Shown piece after piece: positions 97-40,917 of a stretch of DNA of 40,917 nucleotides. Under the pieces are notes generated by a model. That model was not told the DNA's origin and did no database searches. It was given only the letters and a program-made list of their open reading frames with translations. Every line of letters starts with the position of its first letter. Position 1 is the stretch's first letter. Made by a program: the position numbers and the translations under genes. The stretch is from the sequence record NC_019915.1, one strand, 5' to 3'. This DNA is from Staphylococcus phage StB20.

Positions 97-1401
97 CTAT
101 GTCGATAGACTTAATGGCCATCTTAATGAAATCTGCTTTATCATCCAACGAGAATATTTTCCATGATTCCAACAATACATTTTTGAATTTTTTATCTTAT
201 CTATATCTAGTGTTTTTTTAGGTACTAATTCTTTTTGTTTTTCATATTCTGCGATTGTTTCGTCTGTTTCTTTAATTAATTCAAATAATTCTTCTTCTTG
301 CATTAACCCTTTAGCATATAATTTATGATACCTTTTACGTTGTTCCATAATTTTGTCTATATCAATAGTAACGACATCGTCTTTTTGTTTTGTCTTTACT
401 TCGTATTTTCCTAAGTCTAGTTTAGATAGGTAATCGCGAAAAACTCTTAATGCTTCATTTTCTGCAAAGCCGAAACTTTCCTTTTTACCTTTACATGTGT
501 TGCAATAATACGTTTTATAGGTAACATAGCCTTTCTTTCTCTTTTTTGTTGCTGTGTTCATTGTTAATGTGCCACCACATTTTGGGCAAATAAATTTACC
601 TCTGAATACTGATACATGACTGACTATTTTAGTGTTGATTCTTTCTTCTAGCCTTTCTTTTATTTGTTGATACATTTCTTCGGTAATAATAGGTTCGTGA
701 GAGTTTTCTATAAATACATCTCCCCAAGTATAATGTCCTCTTGTGATAGGGCTTCTTAGCGCTCTTGTTATTGTTCTATCTTCCCATCTTTTTCCATTAG
801 GAGGTGGTATATCTGAATCGTTTAATTTCCTAGCTATACCTTTTGAACTGACACCTTTCAAAACTTCATCATATGCCCACAAAACTACTTTTTTGTAATC
901 ATTAGGAATGTAAGTATTATCTACACGGTCATAATAAAAGGGTGGTGGTGTGAGTATCATGCCTTGCTTAATTGCTGCGCGTTTACCCATCATTACTCGT
1001 TCTCTAATCGTTTCACGTTCCCACTCTGCCATAGCACCAACCAATGTAACAAAAAGTCTACCCATAGCTGTAGAAGTGTCGTAAACCTCTGTAGCACTTC
1101 TGAAAGCAACATTGTTCTGTTCAAATATCTCTAGGAAGTCCAATAAGTCACGTACATTACGTGTAAGCCTATCTAACTTGTACACTAAGACTAAATCAAA
1201 TCGTTTAATGTCATTCATCATACGTTGTAATTCTGGTCGGTCACGTTTAGCACCAGAAAAACCAGCGTCGACAAATACATCTGATTCATTCCAATCATTT
1301 ATCTCACAAAATGATTTAAGTTTTCGTTCTTGCTCTTCGATAGAATGACCGTGTTCTTTTTGCTCTAACGTACTGACACGAACGTAAATAGCTACGTTCA
1401 T
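97..1401 (-). CDS. int: Large serine recombinase (phage integrase, resolvase/invertase-type catalytic domain plus large C-terminal domain)
   Basis: 434 aa. N-terminus VAIYVRVSTLEQ carries the serine-recombinase nucleophile context. Conserved DGFSG/KRDRP-like resolvase motifs are present. The C-terminal part has a Cys-rich zinc-ribbon (CPKCGG...CNTC) and a coiled coil typical of large serine integrases. RBS AGGGAGTGATGA lies upstream. Confidence 0.88.
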   Translation of the reverse strand: MNVAIYVRVSTLEQKEHGHSIEEQERKLKSFCEINDWNESDVFVDAGFSGAKRDRPELQRMMNDIKRFDLVLVYKLDRLTRNVRDLLDFLEIFEQNNVAFRSATEVYDTSTAMGRLFVTLVGAMAEWERETIRERVMMGKRAAIKQGMILTPPPFYYDRVDNTYIPNDYKKVVLWAYDEVLKGVSSKGIARKLNDSDIPPPNGKRWEDRTITRALRSPITRGHYTWGDVFIENSHEPIITEEMYQQIKERLEERINTKIVSHVSVFRGKFICPKCGGTLTMNTATKKRKKGYVTYKTYYCNTCKGKKESFGFAENEALRVFRDYLSKLDLGKYEVKTKQKDDVVTIDIDKIMEQRKRYHKLYAKGLMQEEELFELIKETDETIAEYEKQKELVPKKTLDIDKIKNSKMYCWNHGKYSRWMIKQISLRWPLSLST

Positions 1402-6503: not shown

Positions 6504-7057
6504 ATGATGGAAATTTGGAAAGATGTTGTTGGTTATGAAGGTATCTACGAAGTCAGCAATAAAGGTCGAGTAAGAACTCATAAAGATAAAGTTAGTTGGT
6601 CAAAACGTTTAAAAAATGGAGACATTGGAAACAGCGATATTTAAAAGATAAAACGCCTAATGGTGGATATGTAAGAGTAGCGCTTTGGAAGAATGGAAAG
6701 CCTAAATATTTCTTAGTTCATAGATTAGTAGGTTTTGCTTTTATTCCAACTATCAAAGGTAAGGATTGCGTTAATCATATTGATGGTAATCCTAAAAATA
6801 ATAGTGTTGAAAATTTAGAATGGTGTAATCACTTAGAAAATAATAGACATGCTTTTGAGAACAATCTTATAGATACGCAAAAGGCTGTTAAGTTAACACA
6901 CTTAGATTTAGGTATCCAATTAGAATTTGTAAGTATGTCAAAAGCTAGTAAATGGCTTGGGCGTAACACTGGATATTTAAGTGGTGTTTTAAAAAGAAAC
7001 AAATATATAGCTACCTCTAATGACGGTGAAAAATACCAAGTAGAGAAGTTGATATAG
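6504..7057 (+). pseudogene. Free-standing NUMOD4/HNH homing endonuclease, frameshifted (N-terminal 6504..6644 in one frame, remainder 6596..7057 in the -1 frame)
   Basis: N-terminus MMEIWKDVVGYEGIYEVSNKGRVRT is a NUMOD4 motif and parallels the intact paralogue at 38909 (MKEIWKDIKGYENYYMISNTGKVKS). The downstream frame carries the HNH part (NHIDGNPKNNSVENLEWCNHLEN). The frames overlap at an A6 run 6611..6616. Confidence 0.7.
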
Positions 7058-14075: not shown

Positions 14076-14676
14076 GCGCACTTCCGACATACTAGAAGTG
14101 CGGGTTGTCAATAGGGTATTATAGTAGCATAAGGAAAACTGGATAGCACCTTTAGAAGTGGAGTTGTTATTCAGTAGGTATGTGATCCAACACTATATTC
14201 TTGAGGCACGTTACTTTTGTAGCGTGTCTTTTTGTATGCACCTATCTTAACTACCCACAGAATAAGGACGCACATATTAAAGGACACTACTTATTTAAGG
14301 TGGGGTTTGAAGGTGATACTATTTAAGGTCACATACTTTTAGGTCATCACTTTAGTGTGTGACATACATAACAATAAACATTCATTTATATGTCAAAAAG
14401 GTTTCGTTAGTTTAAGAGATTGATAGAAACATTAAATAATAAATCAAAAAGTAAAGTTTGTTTGTTGTTAATATTATTTGTTGTTTAACAATTGAATGTT
14501 AAAAGAAATGTTTTCTTAATCATAATCTTTGTGAGATTAATTTCTATTTGATTGATAAAACATTTTCTAAAGTTAAAGACAAAATGATTTTCTATTTTAG
14601 AATTTCGTTTTGTCTTTTCTTTTATTCTTAAATTGATTTGAGTTTCTTTGTTAAGAAATGAAAGAACAAAAGTTAA
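14076..14676. promoter_or_regulatory. 600-bp noncoding region between rinA and the HNH-terminase module: stem-loop GCGCACTTC...GAAGTGCG (14086..14112), a GC-balanced block with short direct repeats (CTATTTAAGGT twice; GTCACATAC/GTGACATAC) and an AT-rich tract; probable late-promoter and packaging-region DNA
   Basis: No ORF with an RBS on either strand. The repeats and the dyad were read directly from the sequence. Confidence 0.5.
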
Positions 14677-15054: not shown

Positions 15055-15084
15055 AATTTATTTTTATTTTTGAAAATATTTTTT

Positions 15085-23201: not shown

Positions 23202-23564
23202 ATGGCTAAACGTAATTTTATTAAATTAGTACAAGTAGACAAAAAAGGTAACGCAGTAACAGATACAGAAGGCAACGCAAAATACGATACATTCATTACA
23301 CCTACACAAATTCCTTTCCGTAAAATCTATGATGCAGCTGATTTAATGGACGGTGCATCAGACGAAAACACTTCTGCACAAGAGAATATCGACCAAATGT
23401 TAGATATGGTGGTTGATATCTACAATAACCAATTTACAAAAGATGACTTATTAGACAGATTACACGCACCAGACGCAGTAGAAGAATTACAACAACAAAT
23501 TCAATTTATTGCACAAGGTCAAATGGATGAAGAAAGAAAAAAGCAACTAGCCAAAATGATTTAA
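23202..23564 (+). CDS. Tail assembly chaperone G
   Basis: 120 aa. Acidic. It ends 20 nt after the slippery site. RBS AAAGGAGCAATTATAAATG. Confidence 0.8.
   Translation: MAKRNFIKLVQVDKKGNAVTDTEGNAKYDTFITPTQIPFRKIYDAADLMDGASDENTSAQENIDQMLDMVVDIYNNQFTKDDLLDRLHAPDAVEELQQQIQFIAQGQMDEERKKQLAKMI
23537..23543 (+). other. Programmed -1 ribosomal frameshift slippery heptamer A_AAA_AAG (gpG to gpGT)
   Basis: In the G frame the codons are aga aaa aag. The -1 frame is open from 23531 to 23749 and encodes a T-like extension. Confidence 0.75.
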
Positions 23565-23749
23565 AACCTATCAATTATAAAGAACATAAGGAAAATATGA
23601 AGAAGTTAATGTTGAAAATGATGGAAGAAGGCGGCAAGGATATCAATGACATATTAAACATGCCTTTTGCATTTTTCATGGAGTTAGTTGACGAAAGTAA
23701 TAAGAAAAACGTCAAGAAAACAAACAGTATGATCGACGCGTTCATGTAA
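23543..23749 (+). CDS. T extension of the tail assembly chaperone GT (made by -1 frameshift from 23202)
   Basis: The -1 frame continues KKATSQNDLKPINYKEHKENMKKLMLKMMEEGGKDINDILNMPFAFFMELVDESNKKNVKKTNSMIDAFM*. Confidence 0.7.
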   Translation, partial: ATSQNDLKPINYKEHKENMKKLMLKMMEEGGKDINDILNMPFAFFMELVDESNKKNVKKTNSMIDAFM

Positions 23750-23774: not shown

Positions 23775-26700
23775 GTGATGGCAGAAAGAATAAAAGGGTT
23801 GCAGATTGACCTATCTATGAAGGATATGGGCGTTCAACGTAGTATTTCGGAAATAAAACGTAGCTTTAAAGGATTAAACGCTGACTTAAAACTATCTAAC
23901 AACAACTTTAAGTATTCCGAAAAAAGTTTAAATTCATATAAGTTAAGAACTAGAGAATTATCGCAAGCAGTCAAAGAATCTAAAGCTAACGTTGCAGCGT
24001 TGAAAGCAAAATACCAAGAAGCATCAAGAGCATCTGGTGTGAATAGCAAAAAAGCTGCTCAATTAAGGCAGGAATATAGTCGACAAGCTGACAATCTTAA
24101 TTATTTACAAAACGAACTCGACCAAACACGAGGCAAATACAGAGAAATGATTGCAGTAAGTAAATCATCTGTCGGTAGACTTGGGCAAACATTTTCTGAA
24201 ATAGGACCTAAGATAAAATCCGTTGGAGACTCAATGAAGTCAGTCGGGCGTAGCATGAGTTTATACGTTACCGCACCAATTGCAGCAGGATTTGGCACTG
24301 CGATGAAGAAAAGTATAGACTTCGACGATACCATGCGTAAAGTAAAAGCCACATCTGGTGCTACTGGCGATGAATTTAACCAACTTAGAACAAAAGCACT
24401 TCAAATGGGTCGAGATACTAAATTCACTGCTTCGGAATCTGCTGAAGCGATGAATTATATGGCTTTAGCCGGCTGGGATACTAAAGATATGCTAAAAGGT
24501 GTTGGTGGTGTCATGGACTTAGCTGCCGCATCTGGTGAAGATTTAGCAAGCGTATCTGATATTGTAACCGACAACTTAACTGCATTTGGCATGAAAGCTA
24601 AAGATAGTACCCACTTTGCAGATGTTTTAGCTCAAACGAGTTCAAAAGCTAATACCGATGTACGTGGTTTAGGAGAGGCGTTTAAATATGCTGCTCCAGT
24701 TGCTGGTGCATTAGGTTACTCTGTCGAAGATACATCAATAGCTATTGGTTTGATGTCTAATGCTGGGATAAAAGGTGAAAAAGCCGGCACAGCATTAAGA
24801 ACAATGTTTACCAACCTTTCTAAACCAACAAAAGCAATGAAAGACGAAATGGATAAACTAGGAATATCTATTACTGATAGCAACGGTGAAATGTTACCTA
24901 TGAGAGATGTTTTAGATCAACTTAGAGGTAAAATGGGTGGTCTATCTAAAGACCAACAAGCAGCCGCAGCTAGTACAATATTTGGTAAAGAGGCCATGAG
25001 TGGTGCATTAGCAGTTATCAATGCATCAGACGAAGATTATAAAAAGCTAACTAAATCCATAGACGGCTCTAAGGGTGCTTCTAAAAGAATGGCTGATGAA
25101 ATGGAAGGTGGCATTGGTGGTGCAATGCGTAAGATGAAATCGGCAATTGAAAGTTTAGCGATTTCATTAGGTGATGCATTAGCACCAATGTTATATAAAG
25201 TTGCTACATGGGTTACTAAATTAGCAAATAAGTTTTCTAATTTACCTACTGGCGTTCAAAAAACGATAGCAGTTGTAGGATTACTCGCCGCAGCTATCGG
25301 TCCACTATTAATGGTATTTGGTGTTATGGCATCAACAATTGGCACTGCTATAACAGTATTAGGTTCTTTAATGACGAGTATGAGAACACTATCATTTTTA
25401 TCTAAAACCAGTGCAGCAGCGACTGGTATTTGGAATGGTGTTACTGCTACTGCTCGTGGTATCGCAAATGGTTATAGATATGCGGTAGCTGCATTAACCA
25501 CATCTCAAACAATACAGGCAATTAAATCTAAAAATTGCGGCTGCTGCAATGACGGTCTGGACTGGCGTAACTAAAGCGGCGGCATTGGCCACTAGAGGTT
25601 TAGGGTTAGCAATAAGATTTATGACTGGACCAATTGGAATTGTTATCACTGTGATTACTGCACTAGTAGGTGCTATCATTTACCTTTGGAAAACGAATAG
25701 CACATTCAGAAATGCTGTAATAACTGCATGGAATGCAATTAAAAACGCAGCAATATCTATCTTTGGATTTATCAAACCTTATATCATTAATATTTGGAAC
25801 GCAATTAAAAATTCCACAATTGCTATATGGAGTGGTATTAAAACAAGTGCTGTGACAATATGGAATGGCATTAAATTTGCCGTTCAACATCCTATACAAG
25901 CATTAAAAAACGTATTATCTGCTTTATGGAACGGAATGAAAGCTGCAGCTATTAAAATATGGACGTTACTTAAAAACGGCGTTTTAGCAATAATTAGAGC
26001 TTATGTAGCACAAGTTAGAACTAACTTTAACTTAGTAAAAAGAATTGTGTTGACTATATTCAACGCTATTAAGTCATTCTCCATAAGAGTTTGGAATGCG
26101 ATTAAAAATGGCATACTAAATATTGTTAGAATTTTAAGAAATGGTATCGATAAAATATTCAAAGGAATAAAAAATACCGTAACAACTATATTTAATGCTA
26201 TTAAGAATTTCTCTATTAAAGTTTGGAATACTATTAAAAATAGTGTTATAAACCGAGCTAAAGGACTTTGGAATGGTGTTCGCAACACATTCAATGCGCT
26301 TAAAAAAGGTACAACTGCGATATTCAATGCGGTTAAAAACTTTGCGTTAAAAGTGTGGACTAGCATTAAAAATAGTGTTATTTCAAGAGCTAAGGCATTG
26401 TGGTCTGGTGTAAGAAATACATGGAACAACCTTAAAAAAGGCACAACTAACATATTCAAGTCAGTTGGTAGTTTCATGAGTTCAAAATGGAATTCTATTA
26501 AATCCGGAACAGTAAATAAAGCTAAAGCGCTATGGTCTGGTGTTAAAGGTGCTTGGGGATCACTTAAAAAAGGTACTCATAACACCATGTCGGCTGTTGG
26601 TGGTTTCATGAGCAAAAAGTGGAATGGCATTAAAAATACTACTGTATCTATTGTAAATAACATAAAATCGAAAGTTATGGGCACCATGAATAAAATGAGT

Positions 26701-28670
26701 AGTGGCATTAAAACAGTTACCGGTAAAATTGGGAATCTTTTTGGCGGAATGGTCAAAGGTGTTAAAAAAGGCCTTAATGGATTAATCAAAGGCGTTAACT
26801 GGGTTGCTGATAAATTAGGTATGGAGAAAATTGACCCTATTAAACTTTCTACTGGTACACAATCTACACATACTCAACGTTATGTTACTAATGGTAAAAT
26901 TAACAAAGATACAATGGCAACAGTAGGAGATAAAGGTAGAGGAAACGGTCCTGGAGGATTTAGACATGAAACAGTTATTCCTCCTAAAGGGAAACCATTT
27001 ATTACCCCTGCTAAAGATACAACTATGCCACTACAAAAAGGCACACGTATTTTAAATGGTGCTCAAACACACGCAATGTTAAATAGACCACAATTTAATA
27101 CAGGAACTATTCCCAAATTCAGTATTGGTTCGATGTTAGGTAATCTCATAGGTGGAGGAAAAAAACCTAAAAAAGAAAAACATAGTAAAGCTAATGATTC
27201 AGATAGTTCATTAGGTAGTAAGTTGGGTAATATGTGGGGCGGCGTAAAGATGCAGCTGCTAAAGTCGGCGGAAAAGTTTTAGGTGGAGTCAATACTGCTG
27301 TACAAACTGGTAAGGGTATGGCTAAGATTGCAAGCAAAGCCATTGGAGATGTACTAGATTACATCGAAAAGCCAGGTAAATTAGTCAATAAAGTCTTCGA
27401 TATCTTCGGTATTAATATGGGTAGCTTCGGAATCCCTAAAGGTGCTGAATTACCTTTTAATATGATGAAAGGTATGTTTGGCAAACTTAAAAAAGGTGCT
27501 ATAGATAAAGTTAAAGATTGGCTTGAAGAAGCTGGCGGCGGCGATGGTGGATATATTAAATATTTAGACAACATCACAACGCCATATAGTCCGAACGGCC
27601 CACCTCCTGGATATGCATTCAGTTGGCCTCACCCTGGTATCGACTTACCTTACAAATATGAACCTGTTTATTCGACAATTAGCGGTACAGCACACACAAA
27701 AGAAATGCCAGGTGGTTTTGGACACTACATTTCTGTTATTCGCGGCGCACTTGAAGTAATTTATGGTCATTTAAGTAAGTGGCTTGTTAAAAATGGACAA
27801 AAAGTTCATCCTGGTACAAAACTTGGTATCTCTGGTAATACAGGAGCCAGCACAGGACCTCACTTACACTATGAAATGCATAGAAATGGTAAACCTATCG
27901 ACCCTGTTAAGTGGTTGAAATCACATAACGGCGGTGGCAAGTCTGGGGGTAGTCGTGCAGCAAGTGCATGGCGACCTGAAGTTGTTAAAGCGTTAAGAGC
28001 CAATCATCTGCCTACTTCCGGTGCTTATGTTAATGCTTGGATTAGACAAATAGATAGTGAGTCAAGTGGTAATGCTGGAGCACGCCAAGGCATACGTGAT
28101 ATAAATAGTGGCGGTAATGAAGCTCAAGGTTTAGTACAGGTTACGCCTTCTACATTCAGAGCATTTAAAATTCCTGGACATGGTAATATCCTTAATGGTT
28201 TAGACAACTTAATGGCTGGTATTCATTATGCTAAATCAAGATACGGTGGTAGTATGCTTAGTGTTATCGGCCACGGTCATGGTTATGCCACTGGCGGTCT
28301 TATTAACACTGCTGGATTATATAATTTGGCAGAAGATGGGTACCCTGAGATAGTGATACCTACAGATCCAAGCAGACAATCAGATGCGATGAAATTGTTA
28401 CATCTTGCTGCAAGTAAAATTAGTGGAAATAACAGAAATAAACGACCTAACCAATTACGTACACCTAATGTTACTAGTAATACAGTTGATAATGCAGAAT
28501 TACTACTACAAATGATAGAAAATCAACAGAAACAAATAAACGTGTTAATGGAAATAGCACGAAGTAATAAAACTATTGAAAAACAACCGAAAGGTTTTTC
28601 AGAACACGATGTAAGTCAGGCACAAGGTTCAAGGTTAAGACTCGCTGCTTATAGCCAGGGAGGTTTATAA
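23775..28670 (+). CDS. Tape measure protein, present as three overlapping ORFs in frames 0/+1/0 (23775..25574, 25549..27282, 27234..28670); the C-terminal part carries peptidase M23 and lytic transglycosylase (SLT)-like domains
   Basis: The N-terminus is coiled coil with a TM segment ([21 protein letters not shown]). The middle part holds tandem repeats. In the C-terminal part HYISVIRG...[19 protein letters not shown] matches M23 and [12 protein letters not shown]...[11 protein letters not shown] matches an SLT domain. The frame junctions fall at A5 25530..25534 and G4 27236..27239. Confidence 0.8.
26191..26586 (+). repeat. Three tandem copies of a roughly 132-bp (44-aa) repeat inside the tape measure gene (FNA[IV]KNF..KVW..IKNSVI.RAK.LW.GVRN....LKKGTT.I), with degenerate 11-aa W/F-x-x-I-K-N periodicity extending over about 25700..26700
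   Basis: Direct comparison of the 26191..26322, 26323..26454 and 26455..26586 translations. Confidence 0.7.
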
Positions 28671-28671
28671 A

Positions 28672-29505
28672 TTGGAAAATAAAAAAGTAAAAATATTTAA
28701 CGATCATTTCGAAGAAACACTAACGGATATTCCTCATCTTAAGTTTCTAGAATTTGAAGAAGAGGATTTAGATAGAAAGTCTAATCAGATTGAAGTTAAT
28801 GGTAGTGATGGCGTTTTACAAGGACCGATGAATTTCGGTCCTTTTAATTTGATACTGAGATTTGCATATAAAGGCATGGATTATAAAGAATATAGATTAG
28901 CAAAAGAAAAGTTACGTCAATTGATAAATAGGAGAGATCCTTATTTCGTATGGCATTCAGATATGCCAGGTAAAAAGTATGCAGTTATACCAGAGGGTGT
29001 CAGTAATGAAAACTTAACAAGTCAATTCGGACTTATTGAGGTGACTTATTCTGTCTACAAAGGATATGCAGAATCATTAAAAGATACTTCTGAATTTAGT
29101 TGGACTGATGAAAGTTGGCAATTTGAACAAGGTGTTATAGGAAGTGATGAAGTTAAATATAAACACAATATTCGTTACTTTAAAATATTTAACGGTTCTA
29201 AAGATACTATTAACCCTTTATTAAGACACAAATTAAATATTAATTGCACACTTACAGCACCTTATGGATTTGAAATTGTTAATCTAACTACAAATGATAT
29301 ATTTGAATATAAAAAACCGCTCAAAAAGCGTAATACGGTTTCTATTATAGGAGTGCATCCTTATATTAATAATAAAAGAGTTGGTAAAGACACAAATTAT
29401 GATTTTATTACTTTAGCGCCGGGTTGGAATGAAATTTTAATTAGAGGTCACAATATATCCAATAGTCCTAAAACAGAATTTATATTTAATTACATCTATA
29501 GGTAG
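28672..29505 (+). CDS. Distal tail protein (Dit)
   Basis: 277 aa. TTG start after RBS GGGAGG. It follows directly after the tape measure gene. Confidence 0.7.
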   Translation: MENKKVKIFNDHFEETLTDIPHLKFLEFEEEDLDRKSNQIEVNGSDGVLQGPMNFGPFNLILRFAYKGMDYKEYRLAKEKLRQLINRRDPYFVWHSDMPGKKYAVIPEGVSNENLTSQFGLIEVTYSVYKGYAESLKDTSEFSWTDESWQFEQGVIGSDEVKYKHNIRYFKIFNGSKDTINPLLRHKLNINCTLTAPYGFEIVNLTTNDIFEYKKPLKKRNTVSIIGVHPYINNKRVGKDTNYDFITLAPGWNEILIRGHNISNSPKTEFIFNYIYR

Positions 29506-31074
29506 GTGAGAATATTGGAAAATCTAATATTTATGAATAGAGAAGGGACATTTTCGGAAATTGTTAATGACTTTGACTTTGGTTCCTTTAAATATGAATA
29601 TGAACAAAATAATGAGCGATCCATATCTCTCACTGCTTATAAAACTAATGTTAACGCGGATATATTTGATAGTTTGATTAATGAAAATTATTTAGTTTGG
29701 AAGGGCCAGAAATATGTCATTAAATCGACTGAGCTTAAGTATGAAGAAGGTGTAATACTTAATGAAATTGAGGCTAAGCATATTTCTATGGAATTTCAAA
29801 ATCATTATGTACCTAAAGATTTAGATGATGAGTCACTGAATGATGAAGATGAGACTGAAGCAAAAATCTCCATGAAAGTTAGAGAGTACCTTGATTTTGC
29901 ATTCAAAAATAATAAACTTAATTTCGATTATAAGTTACATGGAAAATTTAATGAAAGTAAATATATTGAACAGTTAGGAGATAAAAATGGTTTAGAACAT
30001 CTTATTGAAGGTGCTGAGCATTTTGGCTATATATTTTTTGCTGATAATAAAACTTTCCATATCTATACACCTGATAATTTTTATAAAAAATCAGATGAAA
30101 TATTAGTTTATAAATATAATAATAGTTCGGTTTCGGCTAAAACAATCACAACTGAATTACGCACCTACATTCAAGGATATGGAAAGAAAAAGTCAAAATC
30201 CGAAACGAAAAACTATAAACCTATAAAACCTAAAGACTTCTCATACTCTGGAAATTTTAATAAAGAAGGGACTTGGTCTACTGAACATATAGGAGATTCG
30301 TTTTATAAGACATTTGATTGTAAGTGGGGGAATGAAACCTTAACTTGGAATCTAAAAAAAGGACCTAAAGGTGGAATAATCGAAGTATTTATTGATGATA
30401 AGTCGAAAGGGACTTTTGATTGTTACAGCACTCATGCTTCGACGCAAAAAGTGATTTTAGCTAAAGGATTATCAAAAGGTAAACATTCTTTTAGAGGAGT
30501 TTTTAAATCGAAAAAACCTGGTATTGATTATAAGAAGTCTAATCCAATCATGTATGTTGGTACGAGTAAAAGTAGTGTTTTAAATCTAACTGCAGTTCTT
30601 AAAGGTAAAGATATTTATCATGTATATGCTGAATATAAGTCGCCATATTATAAGCAATATGGTAAATCAGAAGCCCCAACAATATATGATGATAATATTA
30701 CAAGTCAATCAGAGTTAAAGAAGAAATTAAAAGAAACACTTGATGATATTCCAACAATCGAAGTAGCAACGAATTATTTAGGATTAGAAAGTATTCATGA
30801 AAATAATACTATTCGATTTATACACAAACCTATCGGATTTAATACTGATTTAAAAGTTGTCAAACTTACTGAATATCATCCACTTGTTTCGCAGCCTATT
30901 GAAGTGGAATTCAGTAATGCTCAGAAAGATATTATAAAAATGCAATCACAGTTCAATCGTAGGTTAAGAAAGGTTAATAATCTTATGAAAAAAGGATTCA
31001 AAACTAGTGACTATTCTTTAAATGTGTTAGAGGAATATAACGAAACAGTAGGAAGTGTATTGATTGATGAGTAA
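29506..31074 (+). CDS. Tail-associated protein (Tal; prophage tail endopeptidase-family N-terminal domain)
   Basis: 522 aa. Start ambiguous (GTG 29506, TTG 29515 or ATG 29533). Position and size are typical of siphovirus Tal proteins. Confidence 0.7.
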   Translation: MRILENLIFMNREGTFSEIVNDFDFGSFKYEYEQNNERSISLTAYKTNVNADIFDSLINENYLVWKGQKYVIKSTELKYEEGVILNEIEAKHISMEFQNHYVPKDLDDESLNDEDETEAKISMKVREYLDFAFKNNKLNFDYKLHGKFNESKYIEQLGDKNGLEHLIEGAEHFGYIFFADNKTFHIYTPDNFYKKSDEILVYKYNNSSVSAKTITTELRTYIQGYGKKKSKSETKNYKPIKPKDFSYSGNFNKEGTWSTEHIGDSFYKTFDCKWGNETLTWNLKKGPKGGIIEVFIDDKSKGTFDCYSTHASTQKVILAKGLSKGKHSFRGVFKSKKPGIDYKKSNPIMYVGTSKSSVLNLTAVLKGKDIYHVYAEYKSPYYKQYGKSEAPTIYDDNITSQSELKKKLKETLDDIPTIEVATNYLGLESIHENNTIRFIHKPIGFNTDLKVVKLTEYHPLVSQPIEVEFSNAQKDIIKMQSQFNRRLRKVNNLMKKGFKTSDYSLNVLEEYNETVGSVLIDE

Positions 31075-31255: not shown

Positions 31256-33118
31256 ATGTTATTAACTTTAGATTTTCCTATTCAAATAGGACACACATTT
31301 AGAACCAAGATGATAAATAATTTTAGAACAATACTTAATTATTATAATGAATTAGATCATCAGCATCGCGCACACACAGAAACTAAGCATCATGCACATC
31401 AAGCCATTCAGGTTGATTATAGAAATACAAACGTTTCTGCATTTTTAGATTATCTTAACGGTAATATTAATGGGCTTGTTTTAGGAGCAAATGGAGACGG
31501 TATAGCTGAAACAAAACAAGCCAGAGTATCAATAGATGGTACCGTACATCCCTTGTTGCAAGAAAGACTGCTTCATGACTTTTTAGGAATTAACAGAAAA
31601 TTAGATAAAGAAATACATTCTAATGGTGCAGTGGATTTTATTTGGAATCCTCCATATATATCAGGAAATAGATTAGGAGAAAATGGGACACCAAATAATT
31701 GGGAACCAGAAGCCCATATTGAAGCATTTTTAAACCCTTTAGTTGATAATCAATACGTTACAAAAGAAGTTATAGGAGAAGATACATCAGGAAAATATAA
31801 TGTGTACAAATTCACGTTTGAACCACAAAATTACAATAAAACGTTACTTATTACTTCATGTATACACGGTAATGAAACTACTGGATTTTTTGATATGTGC
31901 CATATACTCAATCTATTGGTCAATCAGTGGGAAAAGTATCCTCAACTAACTTACTTAAGAAAAAATGTACGTTTAATTTATGTTCCTATGGTTAACCCGT
32001 GGGGATTCGCAAATCAAGAAAGAGAGAATGTGAACAATGTAGATTTAAACAGAAATTTTGATTATAACTGGAAGGCAGGTAAAGGGACAGATCCTGATAA
32101 ATCTAACTTCAAAGGTAAAAGTCCTTTTTCTGAAAAGGAATCACAAAATATGCGCAGCTTAGTTCAACGTATAGATAACTTGACTGCTCATTTAGATTTG
32201 CATGATATTATTTCTGTAAATAATGATTACTGTTTATTTTATCCTCGTTGGGCCAATCAAAAAAACAATAATATGACTCATCTCATTAACAATTTAAAAA
32301 GTAACGGGGATCTCGTTGTTTGGGGTTCCAGTACATTATCGTCTTTTAGTAATTGGGTAGGTATCCGAAATAAAACAACGTCATATCTTTCAGAAATAAA
32401 TGAAAAACGTGTCGGTGAAAAGAAAAGTCCTGAAGAAATGAGACGTTCAGTACGCTGGGTAGGTAATGTAATTTTCAGAATGGCACAATTTGAATCTTAT
32501 CAAAATGGTCAAACATCATTAGATCCTTTCATTAAAGTGATGGTATATGATGATAGATTTAACAATAAAACATCTGAAGTCATTACCCTACGTGCAGAAA
32601 GGAATGAATGGCAACGTATAATGATGAGTCAGCAGCGTTTCAAAGTTTTAGCAAATGGATTTGTAGAGCTCTATGGATATGTGACTATAAACGTTGATAG
32701 AGATGTTACAGTGGGGATTAGTCCTAATATTGTTCAAAATTATCATCCATTCTTTGGGTTTGGTAAAAGTAGAAAACGTAATCTATTTTCAATTGAACAT
32801 AGACTAAACAAAGGAAATACGACCTTCCCTATATATGCTGCTGCTGGTGTTCAAATGTCGACGATCACTGAACCAGGTACTAAACGTACTGATACAGTAA
32901 TGCCGGTACTAGATGTTAAGAAAAAAGGTGCTGGTATTGTAACAATCAAACAAATTAAATTATTTGCGAAGTTCACTCCTACGCATTCTGCTAATTCCAT
33001 TCAGATATTAAAATCTGGAGAATACGGTAATCTTAAAGAAGATACGTTCACACAAATTTACCCTAATACTATATACGATGATGATTTAAGAAACGTTATA
33101 AATGGAGAGGATAAATAA
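31256..33118 (+). CDS. Tail tip / receptor-binding structural protein containing a zinc carboxypeptidase (peptidase M14-like) domain
   Basis: 620 aa. M14 hallmarks are present: zinc-ligand HxxE (CIHGNETTG), NPWG...R...NVDLNRNFDYNW (Asn-Arg substrate-binding motif) and a later HLDLHD histidine. RBS AAAGGAGGTTCATAAAATG. Confidence 0.65.
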   Translation: MLLTLDFPIQIGHTFRTKMINNFRTILNYYNELDHQHRAHTETKHHAHQAIQVDYRNTNVSAFLDYLNGNINGLVLGANGDGIAETKQARVSIDGTVHPLLQERLLHDFLGINRKLDKEIHSNGAVDFIWNPPYISGNRLGENGTPNNWEPEAHIEAFLNPLVDNQYVTKEVIGEDTSGKYNVYKFTFEPQNYNKTLLITSCIHGNETTGFFDMCHILNLLVNQWEKYPQLTYLRKNVRLIYVPMVNPWGFANQERENVNNVDLNRNFDYNWKAGKGTDPDKSNFKGKSPFSEKESQNMRSLVQRIDNLTAHLDLHDIISVNNDYCLFYPRWANQKNNNMTHLINNLKSNGDLVVWGSSTLSSFSNWVGIRNKTTSYLSEINEKRVGEKKSPEEMRRSVRWVGNVIFRMAQFESYQNGQTSLDPFIKVMVYDDRFNNKTSEVITLRAERNEWQRIMMSQQRFKVLANGFVELYGYVTINVDRDVTVGISPNIVQNYHPFFGFGKSRKRNLFSIEHRLNKGNTTFPIYAAAGVQMSTITEPGTKRTDTVMPVLDVKKKGAGIVTIKQIKLFAKFTPTHSANSIQILKSGEYGNLKEDTFTQIYPNTIYDDDLRNVINGEDK

Positions 33119-34332
33119 TGGAATTAAAAAAGATTGGTAAAATTGAAGTTAAAAACGAGCCTTACTTAAAACCGATATCTGATGAAGGTATCGGTTTTTA
33201 TAATTTAGATGATAAAACTGCTGTTTTAAGGTTTTATGTGACTAAAAACAAAAAGCCTTTATTAATTAGTGAAGAAAACACTGAAACGTACATATATCTT
33301 GAGTCCTCTAACGATTCTAATCAAGTAGTAGAAAATGTACGTTTTATTGACCCTTTAAATGGTGTTATTGAAGTAACTATACCTATTGAATTCTTACAAG
33401 CTTCAACGAATACAACTGTTATAGGTCAAATATATATTTCGATTAACCATCAAAATCAGGTAGATAGCGATAAATCATCAACTGCAGTTTTAACTGAATT
33501 TGAATTCGAAGTAGGTGACGCAATAATAAATAAAATTAATGGTGCAACTAAAATTAAATATATCCGTATGTTTGATGAATTAAAAAGACAAATTAATGCA
33601 CGAGCCACTGAAATACAAGAACAATTAGATAATTTAGAAGATTACGTTGTTAAAGTTAAAGATGCAAGTGATGAAGGAATTACAAAGATTCAAAATGAAA
33701 CAAAAAAAGGATTGGACAAACTTAATCAACAACATAGTAAAAGTGTCAAAGACGTCGAGGAATCTCTTAACGCGGCTAAAAATACAATTCAAAATCTTTA
33801 TGAAGAATATGACAACGAAATTGACACAAAAGGAAGTCAATATTTAAAAGATTTAAGAATCGAAATTAGGAATATTGAAAATGTGTTAAGTCAAGAGGGA
33901 TACGTCACAATTGATGAACATCGTAAAATTATTACTGAAATACAAGAAAAGTTGCCTGAATCTTCAGATTGGATTGAATATGATTTAATTAATGGAGCTA
34001 TAAAAAATAGGCATTATAAAGCTGAAGGACAAAATGGTTTTAATTGCGCTTATAAAATCATTCAACATCAAGACTACAAGGAAGTGATTTTAAGAATTAA
34101 CGCTGACAACTTTAAAAGTGGAACTGTTATAGCGAAGTTACCTAGCGAACTAATTACAAGTACGCAAACTGCGTTCCTAAGAACGGTTCCTGTTAAAGCT
34201 TGTGGTGCTCAATTAACTATTGAACCTAATGGAGATGTTAAAGTTTATATTTCTCAGAGCGATCAGTGGTCAGTAAGCCGTGAAGCTTATATTTACGGAG
34301 AAATTAGAATGATAAACAAAGGAGGTGATTAA
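33118..34332 (+). CDS. Tail fibre / minor structural protein with a central coiled coil
   Basis: 404 aa. ATGA-coupled. A long heptad-like region (33540..33900). Confidence 0.6.
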   Translation: MELKKIGKIEVKNEPYLKPISDEGIGFYNLDDKTAVLRFYVTKNKKPLLISEENTETYIYLESSNDSNQVVENVRFIDPLNGVIEVTIPIEFLQASTNTTVIGQIYISINHQNQVDSDKSSTAVLTEFEFEVGDAIINKINGATKIKYIRMFDELKRQINARATEIQEQLDNLEDYVVKVKDASDEGITKIQNETKKGLDKLNQQHSKSVKDVEESLNAAKNTIQNLYEEYDNEIDTKGSQYLKDLRIEIRNIENVLSQEGYVTIDEHRKIITEIQEKLPESSDWIEYDLINGAIKNRHYKAEGQNGFNCAYKIIQHQDYKEVILRINADNFKSGTVIAKLPSELITSTQTAFLRTVPVKACGAQLTIEPNGDVKVYISQSDQWSVSREAYIYGEIRMINKGGD

Positions 34333-35876: not shown

Positions 35877-37259
35877 ATGATTATTAAAATGGGAGAAGTC
35901 GAAACACATATCAACCCTAGAAATGTTGATATAGGGGATATTGGTAGTCGTTTCTATACAGAAGATGAGAATACTGCATTTATCAGAATTAGAATTAATT
36001 ATAATGGCAGTCCAGTTGATTTAACTAAAACAGATATGAAACCTAAACTCGATTTATTTATGGAAGATGGTTCTGTATTCATTGATGAAACAATTGAAGT
36101 ATTAATTCCTGAAATTGGTTTGATCAAATATGACATACCTTCTAACGTGATTAAACACATTGGGAAAGTGAATTGTAAGTTATTTATGGACAGTCTTGAA
36201 CATTCCGTTCATGTAGCTAACTTCTCATTCACTATTGTTGATAGTGGCGTAGAAGAAGCAGTAGCCAAAGAAGTTAATTTAAATATAGTTAAAGATACAG
36301 TGAAACAAATCATGTCTGAAGATTTAGTTGATTTATTAAACGATGGTTTCAAAGATAAGTTAACTGGTGATTTAGAGAATTATTTATCTACACATAATGA
36401 AGAATTTAAAGGTCCAAAAGGTGACAAAGGACCTCAAGGAGAACAAGGTCCACAAGGGTTGCAAGGAGAACAAGGTATTCAAGGAGAAAAAGGAGAACAA
36501 GGTCCGCAAGGTGCTACTGGTCCACAAGGCCCACCTGGAAAAGATGGTAGAGATGGCGTCGACGGTAAATCTTTTGCTTATGATGACTTCACACCAGAAC
36601 AACTTGATAAATTAAAACCAGAATTGCCAGATTTTTCAAAGTGGCAGAAATATAAGTTGACTAATGATGATGGTAACCAAATAGCTACTTTCGACAGTGA
36701 TAATAGAATGACCAATGAAAACCTACTGTCTACCCCAACAGGTTTTTATTATAACTACGAATATGACGATTCCCCTAATGGTTCCGAGGGGGTTGTTTAT
36801 GTAATGGAATATACTGATGAGTGTAAAAAAGTATACTATTCTTCATATAGGTATAACGATTTATATGTTAAAACTTATCATCCCGATTTTGGATGGCTAG
36901 AATGGGAAGAAATAAGTAATGGCTACACTGATACTGGTTGGATTCCACTAGCAATTAAAAATGACTATGAAATAATCACTAACCTAAATTATGAACAGTC
37001 TTATCGTGTGATTGATTATGGTAATTTTAAAAAAGTATCTGTTCGTTTAGGCGTAATTGATAATTCGCCGAGTAACCACAGCGTTGTCGCATCTATCCCT
37101 GAATACCTCAACCCATACGATGTTTTTGGTTATGGAGTGTCAACTACTCAAGGTGGTAGACCTGTAACAGTAACAATAGTTGACGGCGATATAATGTTGT
37201 ACTCTAACAGTTTCGCCAGTTCTATGAACACTTACTATCAAGGAGAATGGATAATATAG
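35877..37259 (+). CDS. Tail fibre protein with a collagen-like triple-helix region and a C-terminal globular (receptor-binding-like) domain
   Basis: 460 aa. RBS TGAGGTGGATATATG. Gly-X-Y run (see repeat feature). Confidence 0.75.
36411..36570 (+). repeat. Collagen-like Gly-X-Y repeat tract (about 53 residues: [52 protein letters not shown])
   Basis: Uninterrupted G-x-y triplets in the translation. Confidence 0.85.
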
Positions 37260-40867: not shown

Positions 40868-40890
40868 AAACCCGTCGAATTCGACGGGTT
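40868..40890. repeat. Perfect 18-bp palindrome CCCGTCGAATTCGACGGG (centred on GAATTC) adjacent to the right att arm
   Basis: Read directly from the sequence. It is followed by CTATAAAAAA and the terminal repeat. Confidence 0.6.
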
Positions 40891-40900
40891 CTATAAAAAA

Positions 40901-40912
40901 TACGGAAGTATA
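40901..40912. repeat. Right copy of the terminal inverted repeat (TACGGAAGTATA); candidate integrase att arm
   Basis: Reverse complement of 20..31. Confidence 0.5.
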
Positions 40913-40917
40913 CACAT

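Follow-up and report, generated by a model that had tools for sequence, protein, structure and literature searches.

Two private single-base indels split the tape measure gene of Staphylococcus phage StB20 and are probably homopolymer-length errors

The region 23,775–28,670 of Staphylococcus phage StB20 (sequence record NC_019915.1) codes for a single siphovirus tape measure protein (TMP) of the ordinary type, 1630 aa long, which is present in the deposited sequence in three pieces. Its discontinuity is due to two private 1-nt indels, an expansion of A4 to A5 at 25530 and a reduction of TT to a single T at 27245. The window referred to throughout is the whole 40,917-nt StB20 sequence, and all positions count from its first letter. 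We infer, with a probability of roughly 0.6, that the two changes are homopolymer-length errors of sequencing or assembly. According to this explanation, both indels would be base-calling or assembly errors at short homopolymers, they would belong to a set of about six such errors scattered across 41 kb, and the real phage would possess an intact TMP gene. The pieces and junctions are as follows:

23778..25529, plus strand: TMP segment 1, frame 0, residues 1–584 of the repaired protein, containing the PhageMin_Tail domain
25530..25534, plus strand: junction 1, an A5 run with one A more than the A4 of the relatives, frame 0 to +1
25531..27244, plus strand: TMP segment 2, frame +1 (listed as open reading frame 25549..27282), with a hydrophobic stretch and the W-N-x-I-K-N region
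27236..27239, plus strand: G4 run, the same in the relatives and not a lesion
27245..27245, plus strand: junction 2, a single T versus TT in the relatives (GCG-TT-AAAG), one base short, frame back to 0
27245..28670, plus strand: TMP segment 3, frame 0 (listed as open reading frame 27234..28670), with Peptidase_M23 and SLT domains

The list of open reading frames (ORFs) gives three overlapping ORFs on the plus strand, 23775..25574 (frame 0), 25549..27282 (frame +1) and 27234..28670 (frame 0), and both this arrangement and the translations agree with the first-pass annotation of the sequence, which had described a single tape measure gene broken into three frames. The intact 1570-aa TMP of the phage StB20-like aligns in order through all three frames, with switches at about 25516–25532 and within 27138–27270, and the three ORFs are therefore pieces of one gene. 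A single continuous TMP reading frame is found in every relative, whereas the window has three frames. As written, the first ORF runs for 15 out-of-frame codons past junction 1 before it meets a stop at 25572–25574.

At junction 1 the window reads TCT-AAAAA-TTG at 25530–25534, and the extra A is missing from 26 of the 26 relatives that cover the site in a relaxed all-against-window comparison, as well as from 9/9 relatives in a scan for private indels, which extended over 29 kb covered by at least three relatives at ≥92% identity. The A4 version is carried by phage S-CoN_Ph25, by StB20-like, by the IMG/VR contig L008, by six contigs found via their identical portal protein, and by L003 and L004, two loci of the genome collection whose 1587-aa TMP is intact; pattern matches to the junction in four viral and two metagenome sequences were without exception 38 nt long, the length that corresponds to A4. 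The nearest relatives around this junction (L009, 99.5%, and L014, 99.3% identity) are intact. That one A of the A5 run is superfluous and that its deletion restores continuous reading had been proposed from the window alone, and both statements are borne out by the relatives.

The second shift lies within 27231–27279, because frame 0 has stops until about 27230 and frame +1 ends at 27280–27282. In S-CoN_Ph25, S-CoN_Ph26, L008 and the 1630-aa relatives the corresponding sequence is TGGGGCGGCG-TT-AAAGATG, with the G4 run kept and TT at 27245; TT is present in 6/6 relatives in the private-indel scan, and the lesion occurs in 0 of at least 8 relatives overall. The relatives closest to the window around junction 2, L008 (99.5%) and L018 (99.4%), are again intact. 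The earlier placement of this shift at the G4 run, with one G missing, has to be abandoned, as the relatives also have four Gs and the missing base is a T of the TT pair; the peptide predicted for the repaired junction changes with it, since the restored base is T and not G. The description of the breaks as lying exactly at homopolymer runs is thus accurate for the A5 run of junction 1 and applies only loosely to the 2-base run of junction 2. The TMP genes of StB20-like, L003 and S-CoN_Ph22 are uninformative at junction 2, where their linker and C-terminal modules are mosaic.

Removal of one A and addition of one T yield a reading frame of 4893 nt that codes for 1630 aa without stops, somewhat shorter than the approximately 1650 aa first estimated. 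The repaired gene is collinear, with no other indel and with 95.2–95.6% nucleotide identity, with five intact 1630-aa TMP genes that were assembled independently (one in an NCBI genome, four in Logan assemblies; found via an identical portal protein). Over 6.2 kb, the two TMP indels are the only ones between contig L008 and the window. The comparison with intact TMPs, suggested by the first-pass annotation as a way to learn whether homologs share the split, revealed no relative with either lesion, and the split is private to the window sequence and not conserved. Exact matches to the three ORF products, and to the product of the gene at 33118..34332, were not found in the searched collections. 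A large protein search with the ORF2 product found no near-identical 577-aa product; all its matches were at most 1002 aa long and it missed the known full-length relatives, so that it is silent on the conservation of the split. The genome-collection scan returned two loci only, L003 (NZ_JBITIH010000038.1) and L004 (NZ_JBEORH010000021.1), which represent the same 41,200-bp Staphylococcus phage contig with an identical TMP gene. Their source assemblies, products of a single sequencing programme, bear the labels Micromonospora sp. and Nocardioides sp., and the contigs are almost certainly laboratory or skin-derived contamination of actinomycete assemblies.

A survey of frame breaks, in which every ORF of about 80 related loci was translated and compared with the window, identified two further broken genes in addition to the TMP gene, namely those of the integrase and an HNH homing endonuclease, and the private-indel scan added two changes in non-coding DNA:

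187..192, minus strand: integrase run-length change, T6 on the plus strand (A6 in the gene), 7 in 6/6 relatives including PH15
6596..6644, plus strand: NUMOD4/HNH homing endonuclease gene with an apparent break of frame; the interval includes the A6 run 6608–6613, the probable lesion
14395..14399 and 14446..14450, no strand assigned: two private A4 to A5 expansions, 51 nt apart, in conserved intergenic DNA

The T7 to T6 change shifts the frame of the C-terminal ~50 aa of the large serine integrase (ORF 97..1401, minus strand); with the base restored the protein has 454 aa and ends in ...IKINDIEFY, which replaces a 28-codon out-of-frame tail. In the HNH gene (6504–7057) the N-terminus (6504–6608, residues 1–35) is in frame 0 and the remainder (6620–7054) in frame 2, while its relatives, which reach 71–76% identity at best, are single ORFs of about 185 aa. 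The intergenic stretch around 14395 and 14446 is otherwise base-for-base identical to seven relatives. It belongs to a conserved non-coding region of about 600 nt between the gene of a DUF722 (RinA-like) regulator and the HNH/terminase genes, and this region is likely to hold the late promoter or the packaging site.

The 5' end of the integrase gene exhibits a difference of another kind. A single CTGAC stands at about 1368–1377 of the window, against the tandem CTGACCTGAC of six relatives (PH15 and five IMG/VR prophages); the window thereby gives a canonical serine-recombinase N-terminus, MNVAIYVRVSTLEQ, and the relatives stop in that frame. Judging from the reading frames, the integrases of these relatives would have to start at another ATG (MNYERSYLRSCQVSTLEQ), without the conserved first strand. 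A private in-frame deletion of 3 nt (36338–36340), relative to 4/4 relatives, was also observed in ORF 35877..37259 (460 aa), located by the lysis genes.

All five resolved private 1-nt changes are in runs (A4 to A5 three times, T7 to T6, and TT to T), and two of them are intergenic; together with the HNH change, the six affect runs of 4, 4, 4, 7, about 7 (HNH, where the run is the presumed one) and 2 nucleotides, in a window that has 20 runs of at least 7. The changes thus have the features expected of artefacts, being indels in mononucleotide runs, private to one sequence and present also in non-coding DNA. Replication slippage rises steeply with the length of the run, and because of this the bias of the observed changes towards short runs fits miscalls better. 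Over the 16 kb compared, the relatives exhibit 1-nt indels between genes only and 3-nt indels inside genes, and no coding frameshift was found in them. Several other candidates were rejected: a shared error-prone k-mer behind the three A4 to A5 changes (TCAAAAG is unchanged at 14 more places), a private frameshift at the indel pair 7239/7243 (its net effect is zero), and the indels at 15063 and 19435, which some relatives have as well. For a candidate indel at 1694 no aligning relative was found in the set tried.

The coding sequence of the TMP gene bears on the same question. The private codon changes on the branch of the window comprise 21 synonymous and 8 nonsynonymous ones (38:6 and 18:8 in intact relatives), and nonsense codons are absent from its 4.9 kb. 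As the ratio resembles that of the relatives and nonsense codons are lacking, there is no sign of relaxed selection, and the TMP gene has been under selection essentially until the present. It is the combination of this normal synonymous to nonsynonymous ratio with the other private run-length changes that tilts the balance towards sequencing or assembly error.

Several observations weigh against such errors. The sequence is otherwise clean, with all other comparable genes intact and of full length, and for this reason has fewer faults than a strongly error-prone assembly would give; the TMP gene received two of the few lesions despite making up 12% of the genome; the ends of the window are prophage-like and appear to coincide with an attachment site; and prophages decay through exactly such frameshifts. 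In the well-sampled stretches 13–19 kb and 24–33 kb, private substitutions outnumber private 1-nt indels 23 to 4 (0 versus 2 within 13–15 kb); these counts speak for errors, although the ratio of about 6:1 is unusual for real mutations, but not impossible.

With regard to the ends of the window, positions 40890–40917 and 1–40 are contiguous in PH15 and in one IMG/VR relative, a 12-nt inverted repeat (TACGGAAGTATA / TATACTTCCGTA) spans the cut, and the termini of several IMG/VR prophage contigs are only a few bases away from this cut. The window is therefore an entire phage genome opened at attP or beside it, and it has the appearance of a prophage that was removed in silico from its attachment site.

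The points listed above lend some weight to the opposite explanation, which we regard as less probable but serious: that the frameshifts are genuine and very recent, and that StB20 is a freshly grounded defective prophage that has lost its TMP and carries an altered integrase C-terminus. The lesions are, after all, really present in the sequence, the ends at the attachment site are prophage-like, the clean remainder speaks against a generally poor assembly, and the integrase gene and possibly the HNH gene are also broken, as early decay predicts, though by the type of run-length change that errors would give too. Moreover, fragmentary TMP products are known from other Staphylococcus genomes, e.g. 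one of 999 aa, encoded on a 2.7-Mb contig, whose tail is apparently out of frame. The product would then be the 584-aa N-terminal fragment followed by the 15-aa out-of-frame tail, no tails would be formed, and perhaps the prophage would not excise. However, the relaxed selection that goes with decay is not seen on the branch of the window, deletions and insertion elements are missing, and neither lesion recurs in any other assembly. Short runs are over-represented among the changes, and the two additional A4 to A5 expansions sit 51 nt apart in strictly conserved non-coding DNA and have no private substitution close to them. Poor mismatch repair in the host might have played a part if the frameshifts are genuine. 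In its extended version, in which the prophage is at the first step of decay and has acquired four homopolymer frameshifts (integrase, homing endonuclease and two in the TMP gene) and two intergenic expansions before any other damage, in a burst pointing to a mismatch-repair-deficient host lineage, this scenario is a little less probable still. The idea that the +1 and −1 shifts in the TMP gene form a compensating pair was discarded, as the frame-0 stop follows 15 codons after the first shift. The first-pass annotation had named both sequence error and an inactivated gene in a defective prophage, and these are indeed the two live explanations, but it overlooked the changes in the integrase gene, the HNH gene and the intergenic DNA.

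A functional split, by programmed +1 and −1 recoding or as three separate proteins (ruler fragments and a free M23/SLT lysin), is very improbable: programmed frameshifting does occur in phage tail modules, the heptamer A_AAA_AAG is present in the chaperone gene just upstream and the third piece alone holds the complete lytic domains, but the arrangement is conserved at neither junction and all relatives have one continuous ORF, no X_XXY_YYZ or known +1 motif occurs at 25516–25574 or 27231–27279, the A5 run is too short for transcriptional slippage, frame-0 read-through ends 15 codons past junction 1, and, unlike the true TMP start (ATG 23778, with the strong Shine-Dalgarno sequence AAGGAGGTG just upstream), neither ATG 25549 of ORF2 nor GTG 27234 of ORF3 is preceded by a Shine-Dalgarno sequence.

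The repaired protein has the domain composition of a standard TMP with lytic domains. Pfam searches identified PhageMin_Tail (PF10145) at aa 205–403 (E = 2.7e-64, about 24390–24986), Peptidase_M23 (PF01551) at aa 1284–1376 (E = 2.6e-21, about 27627–27905) and a borderline match to SLT (PF01464) at aa 1426–1492 (21.9 bits versus a cut-off of 21.3, about 28053–28253), in agreement with the M23 and SLT C-terminus recognized in the earlier reading of the translation. The ruler is visible in the translation of segment 2 as the hydrophobic stretch and the repetitive, helical W-N-x-I-K-N region; no tandem array was detected at the DNA level by Tandem Repeats Finder. A 132-nt block (44 aa, 26137–26268) of the repeat region is kept in the 1630-aa relatives and missing from the 1587-aa TMP of L003/L004, and this natural in-frame variation of ruler length should alter the length of the tail. 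The order of genes, with a tail assembly chaperone upstream and a distal tail protein and a tail endopeptidase downstream, is alike in the relatives, and the identification of the TMP is fixed by the Sipho_tail and Prophage_tail genes directly 3' of it:

23202..23564, plus strand: tail assembly chaperone gene (PF23857, Pfam), with a −1-frame extension that ends at 23749
28672..29505, plus strand: distal tail protein (Sipho_tail, Pfam)
29506..31074, plus strand: tail-associated endopeptidase (Prophage_tail, Pfam)

The window represents a temperate siphovirus from the Staphylococcus epidermidis group and belongs with StB20-like, PH15 and S-CoN_Ph25 among the S. epidermidis temperate phages; in GenBank the region is matched best by S-CoN_Ph25 (95.5%), followed by StB20-like, and the left arm of the window shows likeness to phiIPLA7 and PH15.

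For annotation, it is advisable to merge the three ORFs into one gene, frameshifted or containing sequence errors, in place of three proteins, to move the second junction to 27245 and to flag the record for several private run-length differences. Should the lesions be genuine, the prophage could not build tails and might not be able to excise either, a routine case of prophage decay. The TMP family is well known, near-identical intact copies are public and breakage by indels in short runs is familiar under either explanation, and little biological weight attaches to a standard TMP with lytic domains.

Among known systems, a change of frame in the tail module is also exhibited by the programmed −1 frameshift of tail assembly chaperones of the lambda G/GT type, reportedly described by Xu, Hendrix and Duda in 2004, of which the window has a real example 230 nt upstream of the TMP start. 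The canonical −1 slippery site A_AAA_AAG at 23537–23543, at the end of the chaperone gene, is intact, conforms to the standard G/GT arrangement and is a genuine programmed frameshift of the tail module. Such a site is conserved, has a slippery heptamer and gives two products in a fixed ratio, whereas the TMP junctions have none of these features.

The TMP of StB20-like (YP_009200535.1) is 94.5% identical to that of the window over the N-terminal 585 aa and has the same neighbors (chaperone, TMP, distal tail protein, endopeptidase), but it is intact, has a mosaic central module (67% identity) and a mosaic C-terminal module (52%), and its linker at junction 2 is unalignable. The intact S. epidermidis TMPs (GCA_001836835.1 contig KV830664.1; SRR3177797, SRR7939247, SRR7939114, ERR3679856; UViG_3300001512_000002) share with the window the position and the repaired length, the PhageMin_Tail and Peptidase_M23 domains and junction flanks that are >99% identical, and differ from it in having A4 and TT in one ORF where the window has A5 and a single T in three ORFs.

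The closest GenBank phage over the TMP gene, S-CoN_Ph25 (OR354848.1, L001; 95.5%), and S-CoN_Ph26 (OR354849.1, L006) also have TMP genes broken by 1-nt indels, many of those in S-CoN_Ph25 at homopolymers, into at least five deposited pieces each (five in S-CoN_Ph25); the breaks are elsewhere than those of the window, both of whose junctions are intact there. Many other genes of these two phages are shattered by 1-nt indels in the same way, with 178 annotated coding sequences in the 44.6 kb of S-CoN_Ph26. Both phages form plaques and were sequenced by Nanopore R9.4.1 alone (PMC11001980), and because they form plaques the breaks in their TMP genes are attributable to errors. This fragmentation of a TMP gene in Nanopore-only sequences provides a precedent for regarding the split in StB20 as an artefact.

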